Shown piece after piece: positions 4,383-58,311 of a DNA stretch of 64,000 nucleotides (the stretch's first letter is position 1; each line of letters begins with the position of its first letter). The stretch lies in the sequence record NC_101835.1, one strand, 5' to 3'. Made by a program: the position numbers and the translations under genes. The notes under the pieces were generated by a model. That model made no database searches and was not told the DNA's origin. It worked only from the letters and a program-made list of their open reading frames with translations. This DNA is from a phage.

Positions 4383-4852
4383 ACATTGTCGGATACACAG
4401 AAATATCTTACACCGAAGGGCCAGGTATTAGAACTGCCTTGTGGGTATCTGGGTGCCCACACGCTTGCCCTGGTTGCTTTAATCAGGCATTTTGGTCAAA
4501 AGATAAGGGGAGGGAGTTCACTGAAGAAGACTTGCAAAAAATCTTGTCAGATTTAGATAACCCGTCTGTGTGCGGTATCTCTCTGCTGGGTGGAGAACCC
4601 TTAGCATACTATAATGAGCCAGATATTATTAGCCTGATGGAGAAAATTAAGGAAAAATTTGGTGACAAGAAAACTATTCTTGTATATACTGGGTTCACAT
4701 TTGACCATATCTCTAGTAATGTTCTTAAACTGGCTGATATCATCATTGACGGTAAGTATGTAAAAGATTTACCAACCAAGAAACCGTTCCGAGGTAGCGA
4801 TAACCAAAGAATGTTTAAAAAAGTAGCAGGCGGTTGGGTCCAGGTAGACTAG
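4379..4852 (+). CDS. nrdG: anaerobic RNR activating protein NrdG (radical SAM)
   Basis: GPGIRTALWVSGCPHACPGCFN and GISLLGGEP motifs typical of NrdG. Confidence 0.9.
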   Translation: MNIVGYTEISYTEGPGIRTALWVSGCPHACPGCFNQAFWSKDKGREFTEEDLQKILSDLDNPSVCGISLLGGEPLAYYNEPDIISLMEKIKEKFGDKKTILVYTGFTFDHISSNVLKLADIIIDGKYVKDLPTKKPFRGSDNQRMFKKVAGGWVQVD

Positions 4853-4855
4853 TTG

Positions 4856-4885
4856 TTGACAAAGCTTTGTTTAGATAGGTATAAT
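4856..4885 (+). promoter_or_regulatory. sigma70-like promoter (TTGACA-18-TATAAT)
   Basis: TTGACA at 4856-4861, TATAAT at 4880-4885. Confidence 0.6.
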
Positions 4886-4916
4886 TATCGTAAAATGAAA
4901 GCAGAGGAGGTGCCAA

Positions 4917-5030
4917 ATGGCTAAAAAAGCCTTGAAGAAGGCGTACAAGAAAGAGATTGCGCTTGAGCTTAAGAAAAAACACAAGCGTGAAAAGAAACAT
5001 CATGAAGATGAAGAGGGGGTGCAACAGTGA
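4917..5030 (+). CDS. small basic protein (37 aa)
   Basis: GAGGAGG RBS; MAKKALKKAYKK...; stop overlaps the next GTG start. Confidence 0.4.
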   Translation: MAKKALKKAYKKEIALELKKKHKREKKHHEDEEGVQQ

Positions 5031-5377
5031 CACAAGAACGTATCGATTTGGCTAATAAGTTTGTAGATCTCATTTTGCCACGGTTAGTTACTCAACATGC
5101 AGATGCTATTTCTACTAATCTTGATGGCTTACGTCTAATGCTGAATCGCACAGATGACCCTCGTATTCGGGCTGATTTAGAAGCCTCTGCCAACAAACTG
5201 GAAAAGTTCTTGCAAGTAGGTACGCAAGAAGCCTTACACAAGATTATGGTGGAAGGTTTCTCTAAAGAATTTACCATTAAAGAGCTTAAGGAGCTGATCC
5301 ACCAAGAAGAGATGAATATCCGAGTTCAGGCTGTTGCAAGCAGCATGGAAGCGGCTATTGAAAAACTGTTGCAGTAA
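5027..5377 (+). CDS. hypothetical protein
   Basis: Track ORF, GTG start coupled to upstream ORF. Confidence 0.5.
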   Translation: MTQERIDLANKFVDLILPRLVTQHADAISTNLDGLRLMLNRTDDPRIRADLEASANKLEKFLQVGTQEALHKIMVEGFSKEFTIKELKELIHQEEMNIRVQAVASSMEAAIEKLLQ

Positions 5378-5415
5378 AAGTTCCAGACACATCTCAATCT
5401 GAAAGGAGTCCCAAC

Positions 5416-6210
5416 ATGGGTCGAGCTAAAGAAACAAAACGCATGCGTGATGAAGCTAAAGAGGCTCGCAAATCTGATCGCCTGCGTAAAGCTGCTGAGA
5501 AATTTGCTGAAGAACGAGAGCACACAGCTCCAGCTCTCCGACCGATGAATAAAAAACAAGAGTATTATCTCCACCTTCTTAAAACTAAACAGTTAGTGAT
5601 CGCAACAGGGCTGTTTGGCACAGGCAAGTCGTTTATGGCTGCAGCTTATGCTGCAGACCTGCTTCGTAAGAACGAGATTGATAGAATTATTGTTTGCCGC
5701 CCAAATGTTGAATGTGGAAGCCATGGCACGGGGTTCAAACCTGGAGGTGTATTACAGAAAAACGAACCTTTCTTAAAATCAATTTTAGAAACTCTCAAAA
5801 AACGACTCGGACCTGGTGCTTATAGTACGTTATTGGGAGACGGTCAGACTGGGCGCATCGAGGTGCAAGAGGTTGCAACAATCCGAGGTCGAGATTTCTC
5901 TGATCGTTGCATCATCCTAGTTGATGAGTTTCAGTTGACAACCTGTGCAGAGGCTTTGGCAATTGCCACACGGCTTGGTGAGCATGCACAAATGATTTGC
6001 ATGGGAGACTTACGACAGAACGATCTCAAAGGCACCTCAGGACTTCAGTGGCTGATCGACTTTGTAACGAGGCACGAAATCAACGGTGTTGGTATCGTAG
6101 ATTTTGACGAGCCAGAAGATGTGGTTCGCTCAGGTATTGGTAGACTGTTTGCACTAGGCCTTATGACTGACCGTAATAAAGGTGTGTGGACCCCTGAGGC
6201 AGGTTTATAA
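5416..6210 (+). CDS. phoH: PhoH-like ATPase
   Basis: P-loop ATGLFGTGKSF, Walker B ILVDEFQ; PhoH-like architecture. Confidence 0.8.
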   Translation: MGRAKETKRMRDEAKEARKSDRLRKAAEKFAEEREHTAPALRPMNKKQEYYLHLLKTKQLVIATGLFGTGKSFMAAAYAADLLRKNEIDRIIVCRPNVECGSHGTGFKPGGVLQKNEPFLKSILETLKKRLGPGAYSTLLGDGQTGRIEVQEVATIRGRDFSDRCIILVDEFQLTTCAEALAIATRLGEHAQMICMGDLRQNDLKGTSGLQWLIDFVTRHEINGVGIVDFDEPEDVVRSGIGRLFALGLMTDRNKGVWTPEAGL

Positions 6211-6251
6211 TATATAGGAGAGAGGGTGATATTATTCACCCTCTATTTAAG

Positions 6252-7181
6252 ATGCGTTTAGGAGAACAGTTATCACGAGAAGAAGTGTTTATCAAGAAAG
6301 CTACTGATAAGCATGGTGACAAGTATGATTACTCCAAAGTTGTATACAAAAACAACACAACACCTGTGAATATAGTGTGCAACAAGTGTGGTACAGTTTT
6401 TAGTAAAACTCCTAAGTCTCACCTTATAGGCGCAGGATGCCCAGATTGTAAGAACAGGGAGTTAAGTGAGAGATTCCGAATGTCTAAGGAGGAGTTTGTA
6501 AAAAGGGCAACAGAACTGCACAAGGGGAAGTATGACTACTCTCTTGTAAAAAGTTTTTCTAACAGGAACGACACTGTTACTATTATTTGCCCCATCCACG
6601 GAGAGTTCAAGCAGACAGTTGCAAATCATTTAGCTGGTGGGTGCTACAAGTGTGGAAAAAGAGCGACAGCTAAAAAGATGAGGAAGTCTAAAGATAGATT
6701 CATAGAGGATGCTACTCAACTACACGGAGACATATATGACTATTCAGAAGTGAAGTATGTGAATACCCACACTCCTGTAACCATTATCTGCAAGTCTTGC
6801 GGGTGTAAGTTTCTTCAACAGCCTGCAAACCACCTGTGCGGTAACGGTTGCCCAGAATGCTCTACTTCAGGATTCAGGCAGAGTACTAAAGAGAGCTGTC
6901 TGTACCTTCTTGTTGATGATCTTACCATTCCCACGGTTATAAAAGTTGGGGTGACTATCAATCTACAGAGCAGACTATACAACATAAGAAGGAACACAAA
7001 TTTTCCTGTTCACGTGCTTAAAGTATTTACTTTCGAGCAGGGGTGTGCTACCATGCAGCTTGAAAAATTGGTGCATAAAGTCTTTGCAGATCGCAACTGC
7101 CACTTCGAAGGTTTCGACGGGGCAACGGAGTGGTTCTGGTACTCTCATGATATTGTAGAGTTTCTAGAAGACAATTGTTGA
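6252..7181 (+). CDS. T5orf172-like endonuclease with three zinc-ribbon repeats (paralog of 3281-4213)
   Basis: Same triple HGDKYDYS...CP.HG...GCP.C repeat; C-terminal LYLLVDD..KVGV...GATEWFWY. Confidence 0.5.
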   Translation: MRLGEQLSREEVFIKKATDKHGDKYDYSKVVYKNNTTPVNIVCNKCGTVFSKTPKSHLIGAGCPDCKNRELSERFRMSKEEFVKRATELHKGKYDYSLVKSFSNRNDTVTIICPIHGEFKQTVANHLAGGCYKCGKRATAKKMRKSKDRFIEDATQLHGDIYDYSEVKYVNTHTPVTIICKSCGCKFLQQPANHLCGNGCPECSTSGFRQSTKESCLYLLVDDLTIPTVIKVGVTINLQSRLYNIRRNTNFPVHVLKVFTFEQGCATMQLEKLVHKVFADRNCHFEGFDGATEWFWYSHDIVEFLEDNC

Positions 7182-7206
7182 CAAACAGATAAGCTTTAGG
7201 TATTAT
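7178..7206 (+). promoter_or_regulatory. sigma70-like promoter (TTGACA-17-TATTAT)
   Basis: Resembles the 4856 promoter (GTTGACAAA ... AGGTAT.ATTATCG). Confidence 0.55.
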
Positions 7207-7236
7207 TATCGGACAAAACAAGGAGAAGGAGATAGT

Positions 7237-7548
7237 ATGGCTACAATACAAGAGAGACTGAATAAAATATACTGCCTGTTTGTCTATAACGGCGAGACAA
7301 TTTTGGCAAATAAAGGATCCAAGAATGTGTGGATCAAGGACAGTGGTGGTAATATAATCAACTTAGCGTTGCTACGTGAGCGCCGACACAGATTCTTTAT
7401 CGAGTCTCGGATTATTGAAAGCAGCACCTGCTACAGAACAGGCGATAAAGTAATTGTTGACAATGATACGTGGTATGTGGTAGACTGGCAATCATTGAGC
7501 TGTGATGCTTCTGACAATCGTAAGTATTCCCTAGTGATTGCTAAATAA
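7237..7548 (+). CDS. hypothetical protein
   Basis: Track ORF downstream of promoter with GGAGAAGGAG RBS. Confidence 0.55.
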   Translation: MATIQERLNKIYCLFVYNGETILANKGSKNVWIKDSGGNIINLALLRERRHRFFIESRIIESSTCYRTGDKVIVDNDTWYVVDWQSLSCDASDNRKYSLVIAK

Positions 7549-7608
7549 AGGTAAATGTGAATCAGTTTTAAATAAATAGCTTTCAACTTCCAATATTAAG
7601 GATTTCTC

Positions 7609-8658
7609 ATGAATTTAACACCTCGCAGCACCATGGTACACGGCATGAAAGAAAAACAGAACGGTTTCGAACCTATGAGTAATAAAATGTTTGGTATGCC
7701 GGGTGGTATTATGGAAACATACAGCTACCCAACACCTGTTGTTGACCACGTTCTTTATATCGACGATTTGGAAGACTTACAAGATCATATGTCTCGTCTG
7801 CAGACGATCCGTATGGCTCAGCCAGAAGAAAGTATCCGTGTAATCATTAACAGTCCTGGTGGTTGCGTTCACATTGCTATGGCGTATTTGCAGGCATTCC
7901 GCGAGTCTCAGGCAAGCGTTGTTGCACATGCTGAAGGGATGTGCTGCTCTGCTGGAACAATCTTATGGCTTGGTTGTAAAGAACGTACTGTGGCTCCGGA
8001 CACAGAGTTTATGTTCCACTACTATCAAGGTGGCACTTATGGTAACGGTGTGAACATGAATACTCAGGTCAGCTACTGGAAAAAACGTTTTGAACGCCTG
8101 ATCGAAAAATACTACGGTGGGGTGCTGACAGAAGATGAGATCGCATCCATCACAGCTGGTGGCGAAGTGTGGTTGGACGGAGAAGAGCTGGCAGCACGCA
8201 CTGGAGCTATTATTCTGGATGAAGGCAACATACAACGCATCCAGAACGGACAAAAACCGAAAAAGCTTCTGGCAAAAGGTGATGAAGAAGGCGTGTTAGG
8301 TGAAGCAGGTCTTCCGGAGATTCACCAGTGCACATCTTTAGATGAGTTAGTTCATGCTGTTGAATCTGCAAAAGCGGGTGGTTCGAAAGGTGATGTTCAC
8401 ACTGTGTTCCTGAATCTGCAGATGGAAAGTGGCGAGACCGTCAGAATTGCCCTGAGTGAGATTACTTCAGAAGATCTGCAGAGATTCTCTGTCGTTGAAC
8501 TTCAGGATATTCTGTCTCAATTGAAGACTACTCTGAACGGCGGTGAAGAGGTTAAGGTGAAAGATAAGACTCGCAAGCGTCTGGTGGACAATATTATTAA
8601 AACAGCAAAAGAGCTCAATGAAAAAATCCTGGGTGCAGGAATTGTCGAAGAAGCTTAA
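7609..8658 (+). CDS. ClpP-like serine protease with long C-terminal extension
   Basis: INSPGGCVHIAMAY...AEGMCCSAGT resembles the ClpP/S14 core. Confidence 0.55.
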   Translation: MNLTPRSTMVHGMKEKQNGFEPMSNKMFGMPGGIMETYSYPTPVVDHVLYIDDLEDLQDHMSRLQTIRMAQPEESIRVIINSPGGCVHIAMAYLQAFRESQASVVAHAEGMCCSAGTILWLGCKERTVAPDTEFMFHYYQGGTYGNGVNMNTQVSYWKKRFERLIEKYYGGVLTEDEIASITAGGEVWLDGEELAARTGAIILDEGNIQRIQNGQKPKKLLAKGDEEGVLGEAGLPEIHQCTSLDELVHAVESAKAGGSKGDVHTVFLNLQMESGETVRIALSEITSEDLQRFSVVELQDILSQLKTTLNGGEEVKVKDKTRKRLVDNIIKTAKELNEKILGAGIVEEA

Positions 8659-43002: not shown

Positions 43003-43356
43003 TTAGTGACAATCACCCCAATTACGACCACACAAGTATTCACCTGTGATCTGGAACGGGACTCCCATCATTTTAGAAGCTTGCCAGAAGCAATGTACCA
43101 CCATTTCGCCCACAGGACTCCAGATAAGTTCAAGCTTTCCGTCATCGTTCAAGATAGGATCGTACACCGTGTTTCCGTTTCTGTCAACCACTTCGTTTCC
43201 GTTTTCATCCTTGCGTGCCTTTTTGTACTTATGACCGTCGAACACATGAAGTTTGGCCTCCTGCTCTGCCTTAAATGCTTCCAATTCTTCAATTGTGTCG
43301 AAGGTGTACACAGTCTTATACTTAGGTGTGTCAGGGACCTGAAGTTGGTACTCATC
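43003..43356 (-). CDS. DNA polymerase A, exon 2 (motif C to C-terminus)
   Basis: Begins DEYQLQV (motif C acidic pair after splicing to ...YYH), ends GRNWGDCH as in T7/Pol I C-termini. Confidence 0.7.
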   Translation of the reverse strand, partial: DEYQLQVPDTPKYKTVYTFDTIEELEAFKAEQEAKLHVFDGHKYKKARKDENGNEVVDRNGNTVYDPILNDDGKLELIWSPVGEMVVHCFWQASKMMGVPFQITGEYLCGRNWGDCH

Positions 43357-43632
43357 CAATAGTTCAGGTAGGTCGTTAAGCTACCCCGCACCATTACGTG
43401 CATAGCCATACGTTTTCACGTAGGATCGGACCATCTCATATTCCTATGATAAGCAACCACAGGAATCCTCCCATTTCGACCGCACTTGCTGGTCTACTTC
43501 CTTTCGGAATGGCCTCTGAGCGTTCGCTCTTTTGAGCGCTTCGTTGCGGATTACCTTGCCATAAGGTTTAGGCTTCCCGCAGTTAAAGAGGTTATTCGAC
43601 ATAGATTACTCTATGAAGCCACAATGTTATTT
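43357..43632 (-). mobile_element. group I intron in DNA polymerase gene, no ORF
   Basis: Exon 1 ends on U after ...IIYYH, intron ends on G before DE; splicing rebuilds the YYH|DE motif; 276 nt. Confidence 0.6.
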
Positions 43633-46056
43633 ATGGTAATAAATAATACGACGAACACCTTCATCGTACCACCCACGCTTCACCATTTGGTGGTGCATAA
43701 GTATCCCAACCAAGTCACACAGCGATGCACCACCATTCTGTTGATATGCATTAAGTAAAGAGTGTTTAGATCGGGTCCAGATGGCATGACCATCAAAAGA
43801 GTAGATAAACTTCTTACCCGTTGCTTCCCAGAATTTCTCCAGATCCTCTTTACGGCCCTTAAGACCAGGGTTGGCATCCCAAAGCGCATCGATTACCCTT
43901 TGTCCCAACTCTGGAGAGATGTCCAGCATATCTGCAACTTTATCTTTTTGTGCCCCGTACATAACCCCATACGTGATAGGTTTACCGTCGTTACGGGACA
44001 CCTCTCTACCTGCTACTTTTGTATATGCCTCAGCATTGTTTTGGTGTGCGTCCCCGTTACTTACAACATCGTAATACAGGCCGTTGTCGAACTCAAAGGC
44101 ACCCCAAGCCCCGATAAGCTGCTCTAAGTTGGACCCGTCAATACCGATCTCAAAGTATCCCGGAGGAACACCCCACAGACTACGCATCTCTTTACCCATA
44201 ACCACTTTAGGAGATGGTTTAGGCATGTTTGCACAAATACTGTGTTTCTGTCTGGAAGTGTTTGTTAATCCAGAGCTTTTAGCAGGAAGCTTATGGTCAA
44301 TCTTCAAACGTGGGTGATTAAGAAGACCAGTGTCAACCTTATCCTCCTTGATTGGATCAAGTACCGATCTGCGGTTTCGCAATGATAACCATAAGACGAT
44401 ATCTTTAGCCATCTCTCCGTTCAATTTTTCAAGATTCGGACACAGGTGTCCAAACGTATCTTTCAGTTGCGGAGAAGTAATAAGTGCCCTAGCTTTTCTA
44501 CGTATTTTCCCGAATACTTCCTTTTTAATCCTTTCGGAGTTAGGAAAGCTTCGGAACTTGTGCACTGTTGTCTGAAACTTAGCATCAGTTTTGTTCCAGA
44601 AGTTGATAATTAGGTCACAATACTCTGACTCTAAAAGCTCGTCCATGTATGCATATACTCGTGCATCAACATCTGCATCAGGTAGAGCTTTCTTCTTGCT
44701 GTCTTTAGTTACATCCTTAGTTCTCCACATTGTCGGAAGCCAACCAGCACTGATCAGGTATCGCTTAATGTCGTCCTGATTGCTGATTTTCATAGGTATC
44801 TTGCAGTCAGGCATTCGCTTCTGCTGCAGATCGCTTATTGCCTGATCCATCAGCTCTTTAGGCAAAGGTTGTGGTGTGGAGGTGCCCTTAATATAACCTC
44901 TCAAGAAATCAGCCATCTTGTCGGGGTCTTTGCAGCCCATCTCTTCACACCATTTTATCCCCATCTTACTGACATCTCCTGTGGAGGTAAATGCTCTCTT
45001 AGGCGGGGCTTTGAACTCTAGAGCGCTCATGTCTACAGGATAGCCAAGCTTATCTTTTAACCATTTCCAACCATTATTAGAGATTGTCCCGTCTTGGTTA
45101 AACGGCTTTTCAGGGAACTTGGGCCGCTGAGACATTGACAGCTCTTTTAAAGGCAGTTGTGGTTCAACACGATCAGCGATTTCTTTCATCCACGCATCGC
45201 AACGGTCACGTAAAGCAATAGCTCCATCTATGTCGAAGTATACACCCTGACGGGCCTGCAGCTCCATCAGGAAGTGCTGCAGCATGCCTCGACGTAATGC
45301 GTTCTTCCAGGTGATCTTCTTGAACCCTTTCGGCTTCTCTTTGGCAGGATCGTACATAAAGTTCTGCATGTCAGATTTGCCGTAGAATACACCTTTTGAT
45401 TCCGCTACCAGTTCTTTCCAGAGCAGCTCCTGGATGATAACGTCCTCAAATACACGATCCACATACTTCCACAACGGAAGATCGCGCCAGTCATCAATTT
45501 GAACTTTCTGGTTACCAAGGGCATAGCCCCATGCCATAAGGCCGTGGGGACCAACAGGCTGCATTTTCTTAGTAACCGGGTTGAATACAGCGTCCGGACA
45601 ACCTTTTGGTAAAGGGCGATCAGGCCACAAGATTCGGCTCATCGCCAACGTATCAAACAGGTTAACCTGGTGGTCGTTGATAGTCCCCATGCATTTAGGA
45701 TCACGGAACATATCAAAATGAATACCGGATAATCTTTCCATCAGCATAAAGTCATAACTGTAGCAGTTATGGCAGTTCAAAGCTGTTGGTGACCAGTCGG
45801 AATTGCCTGTAAGCCAACCTTCCAACTCCGAAAAATCTGCTATGCGAACTTCAAAACCTTTATAAAGAGTTTTCTTTGCCAGAATGAAGTTCTTAGCCTT
45901 TTCTATATCCTCCTCGGAGTAGTGTGTGCGGTCATTTAGAGGAAGGAACAGCATAAAACGGTTCTTATTCAGCTCTTTAAACAGGCCGCAGTGATAATAA
46001 AGATCTGGATCTTCCAAAAGCCCTGAGGCCTCCAGATCGAAGCACCAATTACTCAT
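43633..46056 (-). CDS. DNA polymerase A, exon 1 (3'-5' exonuclease and polymerase motifs A/B)
   Basis: Exo I FDLEASGL; motif B RNDGKPITYGVMYGAQ; upstream of motif C colinear with T7 gp5. Confidence 0.8.
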
Positions 46057-46787
46057 ACTGTCTCCTCCTGTGTCTTCTCAGCATTCTTTCTTGCAGCTAT
46101 TGCATCGTCCCTGTTCTTGAAATACCCAAGGCATTTCCTTTTACCATCTACATAAATTCTGGCTACCCATCTTTCATGGGTTTTATCCCAATTCACCCCT
46201 GAGCAACCGCTGGTGTTATTATACTGCACGGCTCTTCCACTCTTGTGCGAAAAACCATTATCTTCGAAGAACTTTCTTGCCCACTCTGCCTCTTCAAAAG
46301 TTCTGTACTGGCCTAGCCAGACCCTTTCACCTACAGAGTCTGTGCCTTGAGCTACCCATGCCCCTCTTTCTTCAGAATAGTGCACCCCGACCCTGCCAGA
46401 TTTGTTGTTGCTACGAGGTATCTTGCAACTTTTCTTTTTGTTATCTGTAGGTTCGAGTAGTTGCAAATTTTGAATACTGTTGTCAGCCACACCACCTGTT
46501 TCCCTTATCTCCTTGATGTGGTCAACCTCATACCCTTCCGGTACAGGACCGTTAAACATTTCCCAGATTATAACGTGGGCACCTTTAGTGCAATGCTTTC
46601 CTAGACTAACCACAGGCCTGCCATCAGCATCTTGCCCCTTGTCAGCTCTGGAGCCTGCTGAAGTTTTAACATATCCTACACCGCTGCCTGCCAGAATGTC
46701 TATCTTCCAAAAAAGATTTTGACCGTCATACTCCAATATTTCTGACCACAAGTGATTAGCTACACAGTGATCTCTGAACTCGTTCAT
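46053..46787 (-). CDS. HNH-AP2 homing endonuclease (free-standing)
   Basis: HNH motif HVIIWEMF...EVDHIKEIRETGGVADNSIQNLQLL; two AP2-like repeats (GVHYSEERGAWVAQ, GVNWDKTHERWVARI). Confidence 0.75.
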   Translation of the reverse strand: MNEFRDHCVANHLWSEILEYDGQNLFWKIDILAGSGVGYVKTSAGSRADKGQDADGRPVVSLGKHCTKGAHVIIWEMFNGPVPEGYEVDHIKEIRETGGVADNSIQNLQLLEPTDNKKKSCKIPRSNNKSGRVGVHYSEERGAWVAQGTDSVGERVWLGQYRTFEEAEWARKFFEDNGFSHKSGRAVQYNNTSGCSGVNWDKTHERWVARIYVDGKRKCLGYFKNRDDAIAARKNAEKTQEETV

Positions 46788-48924: not shown

Positions 48925-49708
48925 TAATTCTGCTCCTTACTACAGGCTCGTTTGCTAAGAATACGGCTTTTGCCCAGCCACGTGGTGTGAGGCTTCGGAT
49001 CATCTTCGTTCTTGCACTCTTTCCACCCAGCTTGGCGTGTTGCATGGAATACCCGCTAACCGCGTCAACTATTTGCGGGACAGGTTTTGTGGCCGGGATT
49101 ATAAATCCATTACCTATCCAGCCGCAAGTTATTTTTGGATAGGCATCACGTGGAGCTATAAATTCAGGAAACCAAGGGTTTACATCATCCTCCGGTAAAT
49201 ACCCTCCATAGTCAGAAGGATGAAAACGGTAATCAGGTTTGCGCCACAGTGTGGACATAACACCAACAGGATTCTCTACATGCCACGGGCAATCGTAAAT
49301 CTCTCCCAGCTCTTCCGCAACCCGAGCATCCTTTACAGCATTAATTTGGATCATGGGGTCCTTAGCCAGCTTTTTCTTAAAATGTGCAGCACCTGATACC
49401 GCTAAATGCGTGCACGGAGGAAATGCAAGAATAAAGTCTGGGGCTGGGTACATGCAAAAAGTTTCCTGAGGGAACCATGGGTCAATCCAATAATCCACAT
49501 AGTGGATGTTGGGATGATCGGTTATCACCTCTGCATAACTGCCGTGATCAGCACCTTCTGCATTGAAGCATAGGCACAGGTACCCAGCTTTTGCCCAGTC
49601 AATGACTGCACCACCAGACCCGTCAAATAGACTCCACACAACACCTTTGTGGTAGTGTTCTTTGTAGATAAATTTCAATTTGCTGTCTCCTAATGCAAAA
49701 AGCCCCAC
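48914..49708 (-). CDS. DNA cytosine-C5 methyltransferase-like protein
   Basis: Motif I LFDGSGG, motif IV-like AFPPCTHLAVSG, motif VI HVENPVG. Confidence 0.55.
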   Translation of the reverse strand: MGLFALGDSKLKFIYKEHYHKGVVWSLFDGSGGAVIDWAKAGYLCLCFNAEGADHGSYAEVITDHPNIHYVDYWIDPWFPQETFCMYPAPDFILAFPPCTHLAVSGAAHFKKKLAKDPMIQINAVKDARVAEELGEIYDCPWHVENPVGVMSTLWRKPDYRFHPSDYGGYLPEDDVNPWFPEFIAPRDAYPKITCGWIGNGFIIPATKPVPQIVDAVSGYSMQHAKLGGKSARTKMIRSLTPRGWAKAVFLANEPVVRSRINGK

Positions 49709-49729
49709 CCTTTCGGGCAGGGCCTAGTG

Positions 49730-50620: not shown

Positions 50621-50922
50621 CAGAAACCTCCCACTTCTTCAGCAAATGCAGCTGCTGTCGTCGCTGCATCCAGATAGGACTCTAGTTCACGGGCTGCACG
50701 TTTGTAAATTGAGTGGCGCATATCGTTTGGCAGTTGGTGGAAGTCCACCTCTTCACCGTTGTGGTAAACACGCACATCGGTAATTTGTCTAAATCCGTAA
50801 TAGTCAACATCAGAGTCACGGCACTCCGAGTCTGGCAGCTGGACAACTGCTTGAGCTTCCACAGTAAACATATCGTCAAGTTCGAAATCGATTTCAAAAG
50901 TGTATGGTTTATAACGTTTCAT
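50620..50922 (-). CDS. hypothetical protein
   Basis: Track ORF. Confidence 0.5.
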   Translation of the reverse strand: MKRYKPYTFEIDFELDDMFTVEAQAVVQLPDSECRDSDVDYYGFRQITDVRVYHNGEEVDFHQLPNDMRHSIYKRAARELESYLDAATTAAAFAEEVGGF

Positions 50923-50982
50923 CGTTTAGTGCTTCCTTAGTTTTTGTGGGGAGGAGTGCCTCCCCTTTAGACTAACATCTTA

Positions 50983-51324
50983 CTACTGAAGGTCTTCAGA
51001 GTCAAGCTCAAAAAGAATCAAACTGTGCATGCCTGCAGAGAGATCAACGCACCCTGCAATAATAAGGGTCTGATAGTAAGGTTCAGCACCATCAATGTCT
51101 TCGTTAAAATCTACAACAAGATAGTCACCTTTGTTAAAGGTGTATTTGTCCGATGTAAACGCAAAACCTACCCAGTCCCCTACTGCAGGATCTTTATCAG
51201 TCACCTTTGTTAGCAGTAGATCTTTTTCACGAGATCTTTTAGTAAAATCGTGAATCACAACATCCTTCTCTTCAGGAGTTGGATTGCCGCACACGTAGTT
51301 AACTATATTTCTCCACAAACTCAT
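50983..51324 (-). CDS. hypothetical protein
   Basis: Track ORF. Confidence 0.5.
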   Translation of the reverse strand: MSLWRNIVNYVCGNPTPEEKDVVIHDFTKRSREKDLLLTKVTDKDPAVGDWVGFAFTSDKYTFNKGDYLVVDFNEDIDGAEPYYQTLIIAGCVDLSAGMHSLILFELDSEDLQ

Positions 51325-52691
51325 ACGTCCCCCTCTTCGGCTCTGGTTTCAAAATCTTTCCTGACAATTTTGTCTAAGTCAGGGAATGTTGTATTGTAAA
51401 ACTCTACGACTCGCGGGTCAACAATAATGTCAACTTCTCTTAGTGGACGCAACAAGTTTATTCCTTGTATTGTCTTAACTCGACTCAAAGCAACATACGT
51501 CATCCCCGGAGAGAAAGCTCCGTTCTTTCCAAGGTCTAGGTTGTAACAATCTAGCGTAAGTCCTTGACTTTTATGAGATGTTACGGCGTACCCAGATTTC
51601 AGAGGAAGTTGCTTGTATGACCCAATCACTACCCTCTCTATAAACTTCTCCATCTTCCTTTCTGCAATATTGTATCTCTGAGAGGGCTTATACTCGTTAT
51701 TCTCCCACAACCTCTGCTCTATGTCAACCTGTGTTCCATCTTCAAGCTCTACCACCACCGCCTTGTTCTTAAATTTAACAATTGTGGCACGTGTTCCGTT
51801 AACATAATAAGGTACTTTGTGCGTCGGGTCAACATCGTTGGCGGTTATCATAACTTTCATGCCAATTTTCAACTTCATCTCCTGCTCAACTGGCAGGGTG
51901 GAGGGAAACTTACCCTTCATTTCACCAGTGTATACCTTCTCTGGGGCGTTGATGGCATCATAGAACCTTCTGTTTACTTCCTCTGCTTGTTTGTTGGTGG
52001 CGCAAATTGTGAGAGCATCTGTTGGTACACCACCTTTGTAACAGCGAGCATTAAGTTCTGCTACAACCTCTTTTATGCGACGACCCTCACGAACACAGTT
52101 GAGCATTGTGGCAAATCGAATAGACTCCTGTCGGAACTGATCTATTAGGGCTATGTTGTGGAGGTCAAGCTCTTTCCAAGATTCGGTATAGCAACACAGG
52201 TCCGTATGGTAGAAGTTGAAGTAGGCTTCCTTCTCCATAGAAGAGACAACAGGAGGTGCCTGGTAAAAATCGCCAAACAATATGACCTGTATGCCCCCGA
52301 AAGGTTTGTCATTTTTTCGAAGGAAGCGGAGTTTCCTATCCATCTCTATAAACTTATCAGCACGAATCATAGAGATTTCATCGATAATTAGGATGGTAAA
52401 TGCCTTGCTTTTCAAAGGCTTTGCTGTTTTTGCCCTTATTGCGGTCCAGTCCGACTCCATGCTCACACCTGCTGCAAGATCGAAGGTTCGGTGTGCTGTT
52501 GCTCCATTAACGTTTAAAGCGGCTACCCCTGTCGGGGCAACCGTTATGCAAGAGTCTCCATACATTGACTGGATCATGTTGATGAGGTACGTCTTCCCAC
52601 AACCTGCGGGTCCTGAAACGAAGACATTCTCACCGCTCATGATTGCAACGAGGGCAGCATCTGTGCCTACATCATACTGCCCTTTTTCCAT
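51321..52691 (-). CDS. SF1 DNA helicase (Dda/RecD/PIF1-like)
   Basis: Walker A GPAGCGKT, Walker B ILIIDEISM, C-terminal VTSHKSQG.T...ALSRV. Confidence 0.8.
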   Translation of the reverse strand: MEKGQYDVGTDAALVAIMSGENVFVSGPAGCGKTYLINMIQSMYGDSCITVAPTGVAALNVNGATAHRTFDLAAGVSMESDWTAIRAKTAKPLKSKAFTILIIDEISMIRADKFIEMDRKLRFLRKNDKPFGGIQVILFGDFYQAPPVVSSMEKEAYFNFYHTDLCCYTESWKELDLHNIALIDQFRQESIRFATMLNCVREGRRIKEVVAELNARCYKGGVPTDALTICATNKQAEEVNRRFYDAINAPEKVYTGEMKGKFPSTLPVEQEMKLKIGMKVMITANDVDPTHKVPYYVNGTRATIVKFKNKAVVVELEDGTQVDIEQRLWENNEYKPSQRYNIAERKMEKFIERVVIGSYKQLPLKSGYAVTSHKSQGLTLDCYNLDLGKNGAFSPGMTYVALSRVKTIQGINLLRPLREVDIIVDPRVVEFYNTTFPDLDKIVRKDFETRAEEGDV

Positions 52692-53896
52692 TACGCCTCC
52701 TCGTAAAGAATGTCGATAGTATTACCGTCACGATCAACTACATATTCAATAGGGTCTCCATCTTTGCGTGCTTCCGGAGCTACCACAATCTCATAGCGGC
52801 ATGCACGGCACTTAGCGCTATTGTGTTGGTATGGCACACTAACCACATCTGCAGGATCAACCATAACAGTCATTACAGTGCCGTAGCTCTTTGCATACTC
52901 TTTGCTGGCGCAGTGTAAGCCATAGGAGCACGCAGCTTCCGGATCATCCTCTACAAAGTTACGAGGCATGGATACAAAAGCACCCTGGTATTGTGGAACT
53001 TTACCACTGTGCCAATCCACCCACTTGCTGCCGTTAAACTGAACCCCTTTGTAGCAAATGATTCGACCATCTTCTGCAATCTGGATATCGTTGGCCTGCA
53101 TAAAATCGTAGAGCATGTTTACAGATTTTGCAGAAGGATTGCGTAGCAGGCGAACGAGGAATTTCACATAGCGGTCATCCAGCGTTCCGTCTGCATAATC
53201 TTTCTCAATTTTCTTTGCAATGGTGGATCGCATCTCTACACCGTAGTAGTAGAGCTTACCATCTTTCATGATCAGGTTGTCTGCAAGTGTGGTGAACTCA
53301 TTCTTGCGTTCCAGCCAGACAAGGATTTCACCAATTGCCTCATCATATTCCTGAACAGAGATATGGTCGAAGACTTTCTGGTAAACTTCCTCACTTTCGC
53401 TGCGGCGAATTTCAAAAATGCCTTCGTTGCAGGTGATCTGGAGGAGTTCACCACAAATAACTACCAAAGGCTCGATGCTTCGAGTCTGTTGCTGAGACAC
53501 ACTGCTCACCACCTCCAGCACCGGGTCTTTGACTTCTACTAAAGGTTCTTCTGACTTGATTGCCACCCCAGTGAACCCCACACCGTGAACAACACACAGT
53601 GGGTATACCACGCCCCAACGTTTAACGGAACCTTCGCCTAAGTCTAAGATCATGGCGTACTTACCATTATCTTCCAGCCCATATCGAAATAGACGGGCCT
53701 CTTCACGGGTTTCAAAATCCTCACGGGTGTAGCAGACGCTGTCACGGTCAGGATCGAACAATTCTGGGGCACCCACTGCCAGTGTCCAGGTTGTGTCACC
53801 TTTCTCAATGGCACATGTGAAACCCTTCTTCTCAAGTTCTGCACGGCGGTCGCGTGCTTCTTTACGAGTTTTGAAATGTTCGTAGATGAAAATCAT
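52691..53896 (-). CDS. hypothetical protein (possibly rIIB-like, speculative)
   Basis: Immediately downstream of and coupled to the GHKL protein; no motif recognised. Confidence 0.3.
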   Translation of the reverse strand: MIFIYEHFKTRKEARDRRAELEKKGFTCAIEKGDTTWTLAVGAPELFDPDRDSVCYTREDFETREEARLFRYGLEDNGKYAMILDLGEGSVKRWGVVYPLCVVHGVGFTGVAIKSEEPLVEVKDPVLEVVSSVSQQQTRSIEPLVVICGELLQITCNEGIFEIRRSESEEVYQKVFDHISVQEYDEAIGEILVWLERKNEFTTLADNLIMKDGKLYYYGVEMRSTIAKKIEKDYADGTLDDRYVKFLVRLLRNPSAKSVNMLYDFMQANDIQIAEDGRIICYKGVQFNGSKWVDWHSGKVPQYQGAFVSMPRNFVEDDPEAACSYGLHCASKEYAKSYGTVMTVMVDPADVVSVPYQHNSAKCRACRYEIVVAPEARKDGDPIEYVVDRDGNTIDILYEEA

Positions 53897-53906
53897 CTTG
53901 GTCTCC

Positions 53907-55889
53907 TTATTTGATGTTATTCTTTGTATCGATCAGTTCACGGTATTCAATCATAGCAGGAGTGTCCCAATATTTCAAGCCTACATGCTTCAAAAGTGGG
54001 TATTTCTTTTCCAATCTTGCAATATAGGCCTTCCCGCATTTAACTCGGTTGGCGATTAAGATTTTGGCACGATGATTTAGCTCACTGTGCTTCCACGTGG
54101 TGTTACCTTCCCACTTGTGGAAATGTGGCCGATAATTTCCAAAATCTTGCATGGGAATAATTTTCCCTAATTGTCTATACAGGCTGTCATAAGAAGTCTC
54201 ATTTGCTGCACGGGTCAGTAAGAATTTCCAAGCATCCTCTTTCAACAGGTGCTCCACATTCTTCTCTGTAACATACTGGCAATCAGGATCAGTCCAAAGC
54301 AGACGAGATTCAGATACCAGATACAGATCTTCACCTTCAGGAATCTGAAGTGCCGCACGTACACGGTCATAATCTTGCTGGTAGATGTTACTCATCTGCC
54401 CCAGCCAACAACTTCCACGTTGGATATCACCCTCATAAGGGATGCAGTGTTTAATCTTCCGGAACTCTGCCTTAGTAATACGCTCACGGCGGAAGTAACC
54501 ATCCTTCTCAAGTTTTTTAACCCAATAGCCTGGCTCATAACGAGTTTTTGTTTCACCTTTCTTGGCAGGTCGGCGAGGGAGCTCCGATAACAATTTGACC
54601 GTATCTGCAAAGAACGGGTGGTGTGCCGCTTCTTTAAACTCTTCCACCAGATCCGTGGTACGGCAATAGAAAACGTTGCGTCCGGTGATCTCGCTTAAGT
54701 AGTTACACTTATTTCGGTTATATTTGCCGTCTCCGTCGTTAAATACTAAATAGACTCCCCGTAAGAACTCTGACTTTCCATAACGAGCATAGCCTATGCG
54801 GCCTTTATTTAAGCCGCCAGCGAAAATTTCACAATCGCCTAAGTCTCCAAGTCCTGTTTCTTCCCAACGGTTCCACATAAAGTTTTTGCCGAAGATGTGT
54901 CCGAACACCCCACTATTCTTCATCATTTCACGTGCTTCTGAGGATGTTTTTGCTGTTTCCAATTCCGCAACAACTTCTGCCCCACGAAGACGGATACCTT
55001 CTTTGACAAAGGCCTCCAGGCGATCCTGGAATCCACCGTCGTCATGGCCCTCTATGGTCCATTCACGCCCAGGGTTAATATTGCAATCCCCAATAGGAAT
55101 TTCCACGCAGATTGCAGGGTAATCGGTCAATGTCTCCAGGAACTTGGAGCGGTAAGGTTGGTGACCCATCACAACACGGCTCTCATCAGAACTGGTATAA
55201 CCTTTCAGGATGGTCATTTTCCAGCCATCCTTCTCGTAATGATACTGTGCCTCAACCTTGTCACCTTCTAACATCTTACTGGTCATAGGATCGGTGACGA
55301 TGAACGGAAACTTCGCATAGCGTAAGCACGATGCAATAGCAGTGCGATATTTCAGGACATGCTCTTTCTTAACATGGAACTGAACTTTTACCCCGTTGTG
55401 CTCTTCAGTCTTCCGCTCACGGATCTTGGTAACGTTTGGGATACCCTGATCCAAGAACAATAGATATGTGCTTTCAACACCATTGTGCACACTGATAACA
55501 TCGAAAGTGTCCACCATACTGAACGGAGCCTTTGAACCAACACCTTTATTACCTACCAGAGCGTTGCTGTTGCGCTTGGTTGACTCCCCGAGATTCATGA
55601 AAGTGTTGCGGACCATCTCTTCTGACATGCCCAATCCAACGTCCTGCACAAAGAAGTATGGTTCAAGGTCTGTAGGGGAGTGAATGATGATCGGTACATC
55701 ACCCCGTCCAGACTCAACATGGGAGTCCACAGCATTGAAGATTGGTTCACGGCAGCTTGCCAGCACCTTATCTTCGTAAATCCCTTTAATGATTAGCCCA
55801 AAAGTCTCTTTGTTCAGAGAAATTGAGCCCCTGGTGACCTCCATATTTCCGGTTAGTACTGCTTTAGTTTCATTACTGTTTACAATCAT
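53907..55889 (-). CDS. GHKL-family ATPase (possibly rIIA-like)
   Basis: Bergerat-fold boxes: N-box REPIFNAVDS, G1 DVGLGM, G2 GNKGVGSKAPF. Confidence 0.5.
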   Translation of the reverse strand: MIVNSNETKAVLTGNMEVTRGSISLNKETFGLIIKGIYEDKVLASCREPIFNAVDSHVESGRGDVPIIIHSPTDLEPYFFVQDVGLGMSEEMVRNTFMNLGESTKRNSNALVGNKGVGSKAPFSMVDTFDVISVHNGVESTYLLFLDQGIPNVTKIRERKTEEHNGVKVQFHVKKEHVLKYRTAIASCLRYAKFPFIVTDPMTSKMLEGDKVEAQYHYEKDGWKMTILKGYTSSDESRVVMGHQPYRSKFLETLTDYPAICVEIPIGDCNINPGREWTIEGHDDGGFQDRLEAFVKEGIRLRGAEVVAELETAKTSSEAREMMKNSGVFGHIFGKNFMWNRWEETGLGDLGDCEIFAGGLNKGRIGYARYGKSEFLRGVYLVFNDGDGKYNRNKCNYLSEITGRNVFYCRTTDLVEEFKEAAHHPFFADTVKLLSELPRRPAKKGETKTRYEPGYWVKKLEKDGYFRRERITKAEFRKIKHCIPYEGDIQRGSCWLGQMSNIYQQDYDRVRAALQIPEGEDLYLVSESRLLWTDPDCQYVTEKNVEHLLKEDAWKFLLTRAANETSYDSLYRQLGKIIPMQDFGNYRPHFHKWEGNTTWKHSELNHRAKILIANRVKCGKAYIARLEKKYPLLKHVGLKYWDTPAMIEYRELIDTKNNIK

Positions 55890-56386
55890 TTATTGCGCTC
55901 CTTGTAGTAGATATGACTCCCGAATTGAGCTGTCCTCTGCATCTTTTTTGCCCATTTCGGTCGTACTTTGGTTGTATGGTAGTGTGTTGCTCCACCTGTT
56001 ATATCCATAGCCATGTATGCAACATGGTTGTTATTATAGACCTTTAGAAGCATCTTTGCAAGACTTTTAGCGTGATCCCATGAATCTTTTTCTGTCACCT
56101 TAAAAGTTTTGCCGTGGTTTGTCCACGAAAACTGGTTGGGTTGGTAGACAATCTTTCTTATAGTGTCTGGGTATTTAGGGTGAGATTTCCTGTTTAATGT
56201 GGCAAACCCAGATGCCAGCATACCCATCGTGCCATCCCCTCTAGCTTCCCTGTAGATATTACATGCCAAAATGTTTTCCTTAGTATCTGAGGGCTTGCAA
56301 GTATGATATACTTTTTGTTTTGGTGCTGCAACAACAGGCAGCGATAAAAATGCGCTCAAAATAATAGCAAAGATCTTAATTTTCAC
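55886..56386 (-). CDS. secreted SleB-like cell wall hydrolase
   Basis: Signal peptide MKIKIFAIILSAFLSLPVVAA; Hydrolase_2-like NIYREARGDG...LNR...YP. Confidence 0.6.
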   Translation of the reverse strand: MKIKIFAIILSAFLSLPVVAAPKQKVYHTCKPSDTKENILACNIYREARGDGTMGMLASGFATLNRKSHPKYPDTIRKIVYQPNQFSWTNHGKTFKVTEKDSWDHAKSLAKMLLKVYNNNHVAYMAMDITGGATHYHTTKVRPKWAKKMQRTAQFGSHIYYKERNK

Positions 56387-56434
56387 AATAACTCCAAATA
56401 GAAAATCCCCGCCGAAGCGGGGTGGTATTAGAAA

Positions 56435-56824: not shown

Positions 56825-58009
56825 TTAAGCTTTAGCCAAAATGGCGCTAAACTCTTCACCAAACTCTTTTACAATCTTCATCAGGTTTGGGTATGCTTTG
56901 ATCAGCTGAGCAACAATCTTGTCACGACCTTTACCGATAAGCAAGGCATTTCCTAAGGCATTAGGTTTCATCATCGCCATAAAGACTGAGAATACAAAAT
57001 CTCGGTTCTCGTCCTTGAAGTTTTCCCAAAGGAAATCGAGGAAGTTTGCCACACAGCTAACAAGATCTTCGTCGGAGATACTTGCATTTTCCATCATATT
57101 ACGAATAGCGATACAACCTTCAGATCCAAGAATCCACAAGATGTCTGGCTGTTTAGGGCCTACGTATTCTTTGCAACCTCCTGCCATAATCCGACCTATT
57201 TCCGGTAAGTTGCGTTTCTTGGTGTGGTAAGTCCAGATCTCTACCGCTGCAGTGTGACCAATAGCACCTTGTAGAAGAACACGGGCCATAGCGTCAGAAA
57301 TAATACCGCTGTCAAAATCGTGCAAGATATCAGATGCAGCAACCCAAGATCGCGGTGTGGCAAAAGATGGACAATTAATCTCAGCCATGGCCTCATAATT
57401 ATCAATAGCTGATGGAACTCTTTTCAGATATCCAATTACAGAGGAGTGCACCCCATTAAGGAATGCGTAGTCCTCAATAAACACCTCTGCGTTGCTTGTA
57501 ACTTCTACAATGATAAAGCGGTTAGCCAGAGGGGCTTCGAGCGCCGAAAGAACAGCACCATCTGTAGAACGGTTACCTGCAGCTACAAAAACAGAGCCCT
57601 TAGGGAATGCATAGGTGCCACACTTGTGGTCGAGCATAATCTGCATTGCAACCTTTTGCAGGTAGTTATCTGCATGAGTGAGCTCATCCAGAAAGACAAT
57701 TCCGCTCCAGTCAGGATCCGCAGGCCAAAATTCTGGGATTGCAAACACTGTACGTGTAGTCCCATCCGCTTCTACAGGGATAGGTAGCCCAGATAAGTCG
57801 GCAGGATCTTTATCTGACAGCCGCACGTCAACCAGGTTGTCATCTCTCTCACCGAACATATTATCAGCGATCTGCTTCATCACCTGACTCTTTCCCACAC
57901 CCATTGGTCCTAAAATCAGGACAGATCGGTTATGACGCTGGGCAAACTGAATGATAGCTGGCAACTCACGGACAGTGATTTGACCACTTTCAAATACGTT
58001 TCTTGACAT
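56825..58009 (-). CDS. MoxR/CbbQ-type AAA+ ATPase
   Basis: Walker A LILGPMGVGKSQ, Walker B IVFLDELTHAD. Confidence 0.7.
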   Translation of the reverse strand: MSRNVFESGQITVRELPAIIQFAQRHNRSVLILGPMGVGKSQVMKQIADNMFGERDDNLVDVRLSDKDPADLSGLPIPVEADGTTRTVFAIPEFWPADPDWSGIVFLDELTHADNYLQKVAMQIMLDHKCGTYAFPKGSVFVAAGNRSTDGAVLSALEAPLANRFIIVEVTSNAEVFIEDYAFLNGVHSSVIGYLKRVPSAIDNYEAMAEINCPSFATPRSWVAASDILHDFDSGIISDAMARVLLQGAIGHTAAVEIWTYHTKKRNLPEIGRIMAGGCKEYVGPKQPDILWILGSEGCIAIRNMMENASISDEDLVSCVANFLDFLWENFKDENRDFVFSVFMAMMKPNALGNALLIGKGRDKIVAQLIKAYPNLMKIVKEFGEEFSAILAKA

Positions 58010-58311
58010 TAGTAAAAGTCCTCTACTTGTGTGTAAGTGTTTTCAAAGTTTTCCAAAACAGATATCACATCGGATCTGTCAATATCGTACACAACTTCCC
58101 AGTTGTATGCAACCCTTTCTGCTGTTGCCTCTTCTGGCGCTAGTCGTCTGCTGGCATAAAAGAGTGTTGGAGTACACTTTCTTGCTTGCCCTCTAACTTT
58201 CCCATAATAATATCTGTGAATATCTTTGTCAAAATTTAACTCTTTTTCTGCACGAAGTTCATATTGCTGGTATAACATGTTTATTACTCTTTTAAGTGGC
58301 ATCCTTGCCAC
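58009..58311 (-). CDS. hypothetical protein
   Basis: Track ORF. Confidence 0.5.
   Translation of the reverse strand: MARMPLKRVINMLYQQYELRAEKELNFDKDIHRYYYGKVRGQARKCTPTLFYASRRLAPEEATAERVAYNWEVVYDIDRSDVISVLENFENTYTQVEDFY

Follow-up and report, generated by a model that had tools for sequence, protein, structure and literature searches.

The 64-kb (64,000-nt) stretch of the phage sequence record NC_101835.1, here called the window, contains two adjacent genes encoding proteins of 660 and 401 amino acids (aa). All coordinates below are positions in this stretch, and both genes are read on the minus strand. With a probability of about 90%, they represent the rIIA/rIIB pair of an rV5-like (Vequintavirus) myovirus of Escherichia coli, and constitute an accessory counter-defence module that is dispensable on ordinary hosts and needed for efficient plating on cells carrying lambda RexAB. 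The two genes and the spacer between them are:

53907..55889, minus strand: rIIA gene, ATG start, 660 aa, with a GHKL ATPase domain, a predicted second, transducer-like domain and a C-terminal region that is mostly helical
52691..53896, minus strand: rIIB gene, ATG start, 401 aa
53897..53906, minus strand: rIIA-rIIB spacer of 10 nt, GGAGACCAAG, with the rIIB Shine-Dalgarno sequence GGAG at 53903-53906

Both open reading frames (ORFs) had been described at these positions in an earlier reading of the sequence alone (the original prediction), and they were recovered with the same lengths on the minus strand. They do not overlap: the stop codon TAA of rIIA is followed by the spacer and then by the ATG of rIIB, which has its own Shine-Dalgarno sequence 6 nt ahead of the start codon. 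The genes had been called translationally coupled. They are adjacent and coupling is plausible, but with the 10-nt spacer, the separate Shine-Dalgarno sequence and no overlap it is not required.

Family assignment and relatives

RIIA matches the profile phrog_612, annotated as RIIA, over nearly its entire length (E-value (E) 2e-124, residues 1-658 on profile positions 1-724 of 725). Five more RIIA PHROGs are matched with E-values from 3e-34 to 1e-18. In tblastn, RIIA finds matches in 2,648 phage records, and among the matches listed the annotation is overwhelmingly RIIA. The 401-aa protein matches phrog_609, annotated as RIIB, at residues 132-375 (E 1.3e-61), as well as the RIIB PHROGs phrog_36818, 3803, 2886 and 11221; the five range from 1.3e-61 to 9e-21. 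The Pfam model PF26926.1 is precomputed on all close RIIB homologues, including one protein that is 100% identical. Among the 31 top Foldseek matches of RIIB in BFVD, the named ones are almost all RIIB or rII-type, and one is labelled transposase.

Direct comparison with T4 (rIIA NP_049616, 725 aa; rIIB NP_049889, 312 aa) points in the same direction. By BLASTP, T4 RIIA is 28% identical to residues 1-198 of RIIA (E 3e-21), with the three ATP-binding boxes in register: REPIFNAVD, DVGLGM and GNKGVGSKAPF here correspond to RELITNMID, DFGPGM and GGFGLGSKSPF in T4. Past residue 200, RIIA is too diverged from T4 for BLASTP and is matched by the profile only. T4 RIIB is 37% identical over 204 residues, at residues 172-371 of RIIB (BLASTP, E 4e-39). 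The order rIIA-rIIB and the shared strand are the same in T4, where the spacer is 11 nt instead of 10 nt.

The original prediction had proposed an rIIA/rIIB-like pair, described the 401-aa protein as a member of an unknown family, and held an uncharacterised GHKL module in reserve. The matches to PHROG 612, to PHROG 609 and to both T4 proteins bear out the pair, and they identify the 401-aa protein as RIIB. Searches with rII profiles, which had been proposed as the check, found strong similarity to the rII family for both proteins rather than none. A GHKL ATPase module unrelated to rII would fit what general databases return. In Pfam and NCBIfam, RIIA has generic GHKL matches only (HATPase_c_3, and weakly sacsin and Hsp90), RIIB has nothing significant in NCBIfam or in the copy of Pfam searched, which was without PF26926.1, and a PDB sequence search found no relative of RIIB. 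This explanation is practically out of the question, given the full-length RIIA and the RIIB PHROG matches, the BLASTP matches to T4 RIIA and RIIB, and the annotation of the same locus as rIIA/rIIB in dozens of near-identical genomes.

The window is a Vequintavirus (rV5-like) genome. By megablast, 120 phage records match the locus with 90-98% DNA identity, and in most of them the pair is labelled RIIA/RIIB, "protector from prophage-induced early lysis" or "membrane integrity protector". By convention, rV5-like genomes are opened at rIIA (PMC4591320). The most informative relative is EdH4 (Vequintavirus murica, MK327930), whose rIIA and rIIB are EdH4_00063 and EdH4_00062. Its rII proteins differ from those of NC_101835.1 by a few point substitutions: 651 of 660 RIIA residues (99%) and 391 of 401 RIIB residues (98%) are identical. 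The same rIIA and rIIB are present in other rV5-like phages, namely rV5, Murica, FFH2, inoa and the BASEL Bas49-57 types. EdH4 and other rV5-like phages also have the same neighbours, in the order SleB-type hydrolase, rIIA, rIIB and helicase. The word "divergent", which had been attached to the pair, holds relative to T4; within rV5-like phages, the pair is conserved, routinely annotated and functionally tested.

Sixteen unannotated GenBank records named "Campylobacter phage" (MG065646, MG065647, MG065654 and others), with the host given as "Campylobacter jejuni", are 96-98% identical to the locus. This host label looks doubtful.

In phage RB43, rIIA and rIIB are represented by a single protein of 1049 aa (YP_238977). 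It resembles the GHKL domain of RIIA (37% identity, E 4e-25) and the core of RIIB (35% identity, E 3e-28). Its N-to-C order is the same as the gene order here, and it does not contain the N-terminal SPOR-like repeats of RIIB described below. The natural fusion in RB43 accounts for the length of phrog_609 (1055 positions) and for its additional match to RIIA, at residues 26-183. The fusion was found in BFVD, not among the 150 best representatives of the RIIB core; none of these 150 is near 1000 aa, and no RIIA-RIIB fusion is among them. In ten long members of the RIIB-core family, there is no Pfam partner domain except one PP-binding domain. From the RB43 fusion it can be argued that RIIA and RIIB act as one unit.

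A "rIIB protein" of Salmonella phage SEP1 that matches RIIA was considered as another fusion and rejected, its annotation being displaced by one gene. In SEP1 (MW311372, locus positions 4757-8515), the name rIIA is given to a 58-aa ORF and the name rIIB to a 788-aa GHKL protein. A gene of 368 aa at the expected place of rIIB is labelled DNA N6-adenine methyltransferase.

Domains of RIIA and RIIB

The ATP-binding domain of RIIA and its boxes, the latter checked by translation, lie at the following positions.

55320..55811, minus strand: GHKL (Bergerat-fold) ATP-binding domain, residues ~27-190
55722-55751, minus strand: N-box REPIFNAVDS, residues 47-56
55626-55643, minus strand: G1 box DVGLGM, residues 83-88
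55521-55553, minus strand: G2 box GNKGVGSKAPF, residues 113-123

The three boxes had been pointed out in the original prediction and are all present. Residues 50-147 match Pfam HATPase_c_3 with 34.9 bits (gathering score 25) and E 1.8e-8. The marks of the GHKL superfamily are found in RIIA: the N-box (ExxxNxxD), G1 (DxGxG), G2 (GxxGxG) and the fold. At the level of sequence, the motif match is far above chance and the GHKL assignment is statistically solid. Residues E48, N52, D55, D83, G85, G87, G113, G116 and G118 are invariant among 22 homologues, down to ~20% identity. The catalytic-type residues E48, N52 and D83, together with both glycine boxes, suggest that RIIA is competent as an ATPase.

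The Pfam scan of RIIA (E <= 0.1) found no Toprim, DNA_gyraseB, DNA_mis_repair, MutL_C or HSP90 domain. Against the NCBIfam HSP90 equivalog, RIIA scores 17.8 bits, below the cut-off of 455, and the PDB sequence search with phmmer returned TRAP1 at E 0.09 only. PADLOC gave no meaningful matches for RIIA or RIIB. The earlier statement that topoisomerase and MutL features are missing is thus right for the sequence as searched in Pfam. It does not extend to the predicted structure of RIIA, which aligns over 250-346 residues with N-terminal fragments of Hsp90, Topo II and MutL. The structural matches, with their scores, are:

TRAP1: 16.0, 295 aligned residues
GRP94: 15.5, 346 aligned residues
Topo II: 14.0, 327 aligned residues
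Phage T6 topo II ATPase: 13.9, 266 aligned residues
Topo VI-B: 12.8, 307 aligned residues
MutL: 12.5, 250 aligned residues
MORC2: 12.0, 264 aligned residues

From this alignment, RIIA is predicted to have a second, transducer-like domain. The model looks like a two-domain GHL clamp, nearest to Hsp90/TRAP1. The identity to GHL ATPases (Hsp90/TRAP1, type II topoisomerase B subunits, MutL and MORC) is only 9-19%, and their Toprim, MutL C-terminal, CW and Hsp90 C-terminal domains are not present in RIIA. The partner RIIB has no counterpart in the Hsp90/TRAP1, type II topoisomerase B, MutL or MORC families. Judged by its sequence, RIIA belongs to none of the specific GHL families, with the structural resemblance being at the superfamily level.

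RIIB consists of two parts that differ in conservation.

52781..53470, minus strand: conserved RIIB core, residues 143-372, with conservation highest at ~240-372
53600..53890, minus strand: N-terminal module, a tandem pair of SPOR-like beta-alpha-beta-beta repeats at residues 3-42 and 56-99

The predicted model of RIIB, based on 17 homologues, has a mean predicted local distance difference test (pLDDT) score of 72, and the core at ~220-380 is confident. Residues 100-142 are predicted to be a disordered linker of ~40 residues. An exhaustive phmmer search with the core yielded a family of 7,632 clusters at 50% identity. The near-invariant positions of the core are N253-P-S255, G277, K283, D294, R312, C323-S-x-G-x-H328, Y334, P348 and K362-x-R-x-C366-x-Y368. 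In an alignment of 149 diverse members, conservation is at least 94% at each of N253, P254, S255, G277, K283, D294, R312, C323, G326, H328, Y334, P348, K362, R364, C366 and Y368, and all of these residues are present here. The near-invariant polar residues look like an active site or a ligand-binding site.

In the same alignment, the N-terminal 200 residues show low occupancy and conservation. The two N-terminal repeats resemble one another significantly, with a score of 45 compared with 20.3 +/- 4.0 after shuffling. They fall outside the SPOR domain family (PF05036), as judged by criteria including the Pfam gathering threshold and periplasmic location. The GenBank record OQ376695 names RIIB "SPOR domain-containing protein". 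In T4, the RIIB N-terminus is helix-turn-helix (HTH)-like, with residues 7-50 matching HTH_7 and HTH_28. This segment is not found in RIIB of NC_101835.1, which has the two SPOR-like repeats in its place, followed by the disordered linker. Because the N-terminus varies across the family, the missing HTH-like segment is no argument against membership in RIIB. The N-terminal module seems to be exchangeable between phage lineages.

Probable evasion of RexAB and the gene neighbourhood

The function of rII has been addressed by knockdown with CRISPRi-ART. As stated in the text of Adler et al. (Nat Microbiol 2025, PMC11879866), T4, MM02, EdH4, SUSP1 and N4 are unaffected on Rex-free E. coli when RIIA or RIIB is knocked down, and plate with lower efficiency on E. 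coli expressing lambda RexAB. Transposon insertions in T4 rIIA and rIIB are likewise depleted on RexAB hosts (HIDEN-SEQ preprint, bioRxiv 10.1101/2025.11.20.689424). RIIA and RIIB of EdH4 are almost identical to the pair here, and therefore the function of this pair has already been tested in a near-identical phage. The rII genes of T4 and of rV5-like phages belong to the same class of Rex-evasion phenotype.

RIIB is also connected with another defence. RIIB of T6 alone is toxic in E. coli and suffices to trigger a gasdermin/CARD defence of Lysobacter; mutants escaping this system map to rIIB and become sensitive to RexAB (Wein et al., bioRxiv 10.1101/2023.05.28.542683). In the BASEL paper, rIIAB is described as "long-known yet poorly understood". 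The literature searched reports no biochemical activity for RIIA or RIIB, and neither an analysis of RIIA as a GHKL protein nor a recent paper on the mechanism of Rex and rII turned up besides the papers cited.

Several points weigh against assigning Rex evasion to this pair. The phenotype would be carried over from EdH4 by analogy, across 9 different residues in RIIA and 10 in RIIB. The text of PMC11879866 reports the five phages jointly. In neither RIIA nor RIIB is a transmembrane helix predicted (maximum Kyte-Doolittle mean over 19 residues 0.83 and 1.69, respectively), so the sequence shows no sign of the association with the membrane that is assumed from T4. In the BASEL plating, wild-type T-even phages are insensitive to RexAB, which fits the model and is silent on rII mutants of Vequintavirinae. 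Finally, RexAB is unlikely to be the sole or original target of rII, because rII, with its 7,632 RIIB-core clusters, is far more widespread than lambda-type Rex.

The last point leads to a broader activity. The main target of Vequintavirus rII might be some other defence than lambda RexAB, for example another Rex-like abortive-infection system or one that depolarises the membrane, with RexAB being one instance. The RIIB-core clusters come from phages of many hosts, which never meet lambda. The rII proteins of four phage subfamilies, with less than 40% identity, all counter lambda RexAB; that such divergent proteins counter the same system suggests that they act on a shared event further downstream and not on one specific protein. 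Orthologues of RIIA and RIIB in Bas37 are fitness genes in uropathogenic isolates (bioRxiv 10.1101/2025.11.20.689424), and RIIB itself is sensed by the gasdermin/CARD system. A main role of this kind is rated somewhat below even odds. A broader role against abortive infection is compatible with evasion of RexAB and refines it, and is fairly likely in view of how widespread the family is.

Two other roles are suggested mainly by the surroundings of the genes, which are as follows. The two terminator-like sites come from a consensus scan and are pattern matches only.

55886..56386, minus strand: SleB-type cell-wall hydrolase gene, directly upstream of rIIA (Pfam Hydrolase_2, E 2.1e-19; PHROG 938, endolysin)
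51321..52691, minus strand: Dda/Pif1-like superfamily 1 (SF1) helicase gene, directly downstream of rIIB (Pfam PIF1, E 1.1e-32; PHROG 325, Dda-like helicase, E 6.4e-112)
56407..56422, minus strand: terminator-like hairpin CCCCGCTTCGGCGGGG with a T-run, just upstream of the hydrolase gene
49700-49725, minus strand: next terminator-like site downstream on the same strand

The stop codon of the hydrolase gene overlaps the start of rIIA as ATGA, and the ATG of the helicase gene and the stop codon of rIIB have one base in common (TAATG). The annotators of EdH4 put terminators at the sites equivalent to 56407-56422 and 49700-49725. The putative terminator at 56407-56422 is probably the upstream boundary of the transcription unit containing rIIA and rIIB. 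The hydrolase gene starts with GTG, and the N-terminus of its product, MKIKIFAIILSAFLSLPVVAAP, is hydrophobic and, judged by eye, signal-peptide-like or signal-arrest-release (SAR)-like. Upstream of the hydrolase-rII unit, a MoxR/AAA-type ATPase gene is located at 56825-58009 on the minus strand (PHROG 1297, E 2e-110). It is overlapped by a small ORF upstream of it, at 58009-58311 on the same strand. In T4, the neighbours of rII are a topoisomerase gene and denB, instead of a lysin and a helicase gene.

The overlap with a hydrolase that PHROG classes as endolysin raises the question of lysis timing. On this reading, rIIA and rIIB would control the neighbouring cell-wall hydrolase or the holin clock. 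PHROG and RefSeq use the name "lysis inhibitor" for it, and the N-terminus of RIIB weakly resembles the peptidoglycan-binding SPOR domains. The "r" phenotype of T4 rII mutants depends on the host, and it is rI and the holin T that govern true lysis inhibition; the label "lysis inhibitor" is therefore historical. On Rex-free hosts, knockdown does not impair plating. RIIB carries neither a signal peptide nor a transmembrane segment to place it in the periplasm, the site of peptidoglycan, and T4 rII is not adjacent to a lysin. A function in lysis timing is very improbable.

The downstream neighbour directs attention to DNA transactions, that is, replication, recombination or topology at the replisome. 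RIIA would be a DNA clamp resembling Topo, MutL and MORC, RIIB its DNA-binding or catalytic partner, and evasion of Rex a by-product. The rII genes are tightly packed in one unit with the Dda/Pif1-like helicase gene, with one base common to the rIIB stop and the helicase start, and genes for a primase-helicase and a DNA polymerase are a few kb away. The fold of RIIA is Topo/MutL-like, and one GenBank record calls RIIA "putative DNA-binding". The HTH-like N-terminus of T4 RIIB also fits; the Vequintavirus RIIB, however, has SPOR-like repeats instead of the HTH. Lambda RexA binds DNA, and what Rex senses is believed to be a DNA-protein intermediate of the phage, which likewise counts for a role at DNA. 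On the other hand, loss of rII costs no fitness on Rex-free hosts, in the knockdown of five phages and in transposon sequencing of T4, and this indicates that there is no essential role in replication. No Toprim, nuclease or MutL C-terminal domain was found in Pfam, and the best structural match, Hsp90/TRAP1, is a chaperone-type clamp. A primary role in DNA transactions is considered unlikely, and evasion of RexAB is preferred as the function of the pair.

Apart from the rII genes, the window differs from EdH4 at several sites, with additional mobile elements inserted in its DNA polymerase gene. The family A DNA polymerase gene contains a group I intron at 43407-43642 on the minus strand (Rfam RF00028, 64.7 bits, gathering score 50, E 2.6e-15, full length at model positions 1-253 of 253). 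It falls in an insertion at 43345-43632, which is 288 nt here and 12 nt in EdH4. The polymerase ORF (43627..46056, 809 aa) ends at the intron, and the remaining C-terminal coding part lies at ~43003-43344. At the 5' end of the polymerase gene, 46017-46783 is an insertion of 767 nt in place of 36 nt of EdH4. It carries an ORF of 244 aa (46053..46787, minus strand) with HNH_3 (E 5e-12) and AP2 (E 1e-7) matches, which is probably a homing endonuclease. This ORF starts where EdH4 has the polymerase start codon, and at its stop it overlaps the ATG of the 809-aa ORF of the polymerase. At ~50919-50927, the window does not contain the 1.33-kb gene for an adenine-specific DNA methyltransferase seen in EdH4 (EdH4_00059) and inoa (inoa_171). 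In these two phages, the gene is located 1.4 kb downstream, between ORFs of 100 aa and 113 aa that follow the helicase gene. No tRNA genes were found in the 64-kb window.

A possible mechanism and its place in rII biology

A mechanism for evasion of RexAB can be proposed. RIIA would be a nucleotide-controlled clamp of the GHL type, composed of the Bergerat ATPase and the transducer-like domain, and closest to Hsp90/TRAP1. It would work in a single complex with RIIB, as the one polypeptide of RB43 suggests. The conserved core of RIIB might be the effector or the ligand-binding part; its near-invariant polar residues, as well as the toxicity of T6 RIIB alone and its triggering of the gasdermin system, are consistent with this. 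Together, RIIA and RIIB would block the signal, or the activation of RexA-RexB, that would depolarise the membrane and abort the infection. The variable N-terminus of RIIB, SPOR-like here and HTH-like in T4, could be a lineage-specific module for targeting or anchoring.

It can be further speculated, though the idea is rather doubtful, that the RIIB core is an enzyme or a small-ligand-binding domain of a fold without a solved relative, driven or gated by the Hsp90-like clamp of RIIA. Vequintavirus would then have re-targeted this machine to a cellular site or defence other than that of T4, by exchanging the HTH-like N-terminus for SPOR-like repeats. This speculation concerns the entire rII family and not specifically the locus of NC_101835.1.

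The two genes rIIA and rIIB in NC_101835.1 are already known, being annotated in more than 100 rV5-like genomes and with the role against Rex tested in a phage with 98-99% identity. They are among the oldest known phage genes, and as a discovery the pair has little weight. The value lies in correct filing: the 401-aa protein is RIIB, and the database label "lysis inhibitor" is historical. Two observations are contributed here, namely that a pair of SPOR-like repeats makes up the N-terminus of RIIB, in the place of the HTH-like segment of T4, and that RB43 has a natural RIIA-RIIB fusion. Along with the Hsp90/TRAP1-like clamp predicted for RIIA and the enzyme-like core of RIIB, which has no relative in PDB, the lineage-variable N-terminus and the RB43 fusion may be useful for understanding the mechanism of rII.

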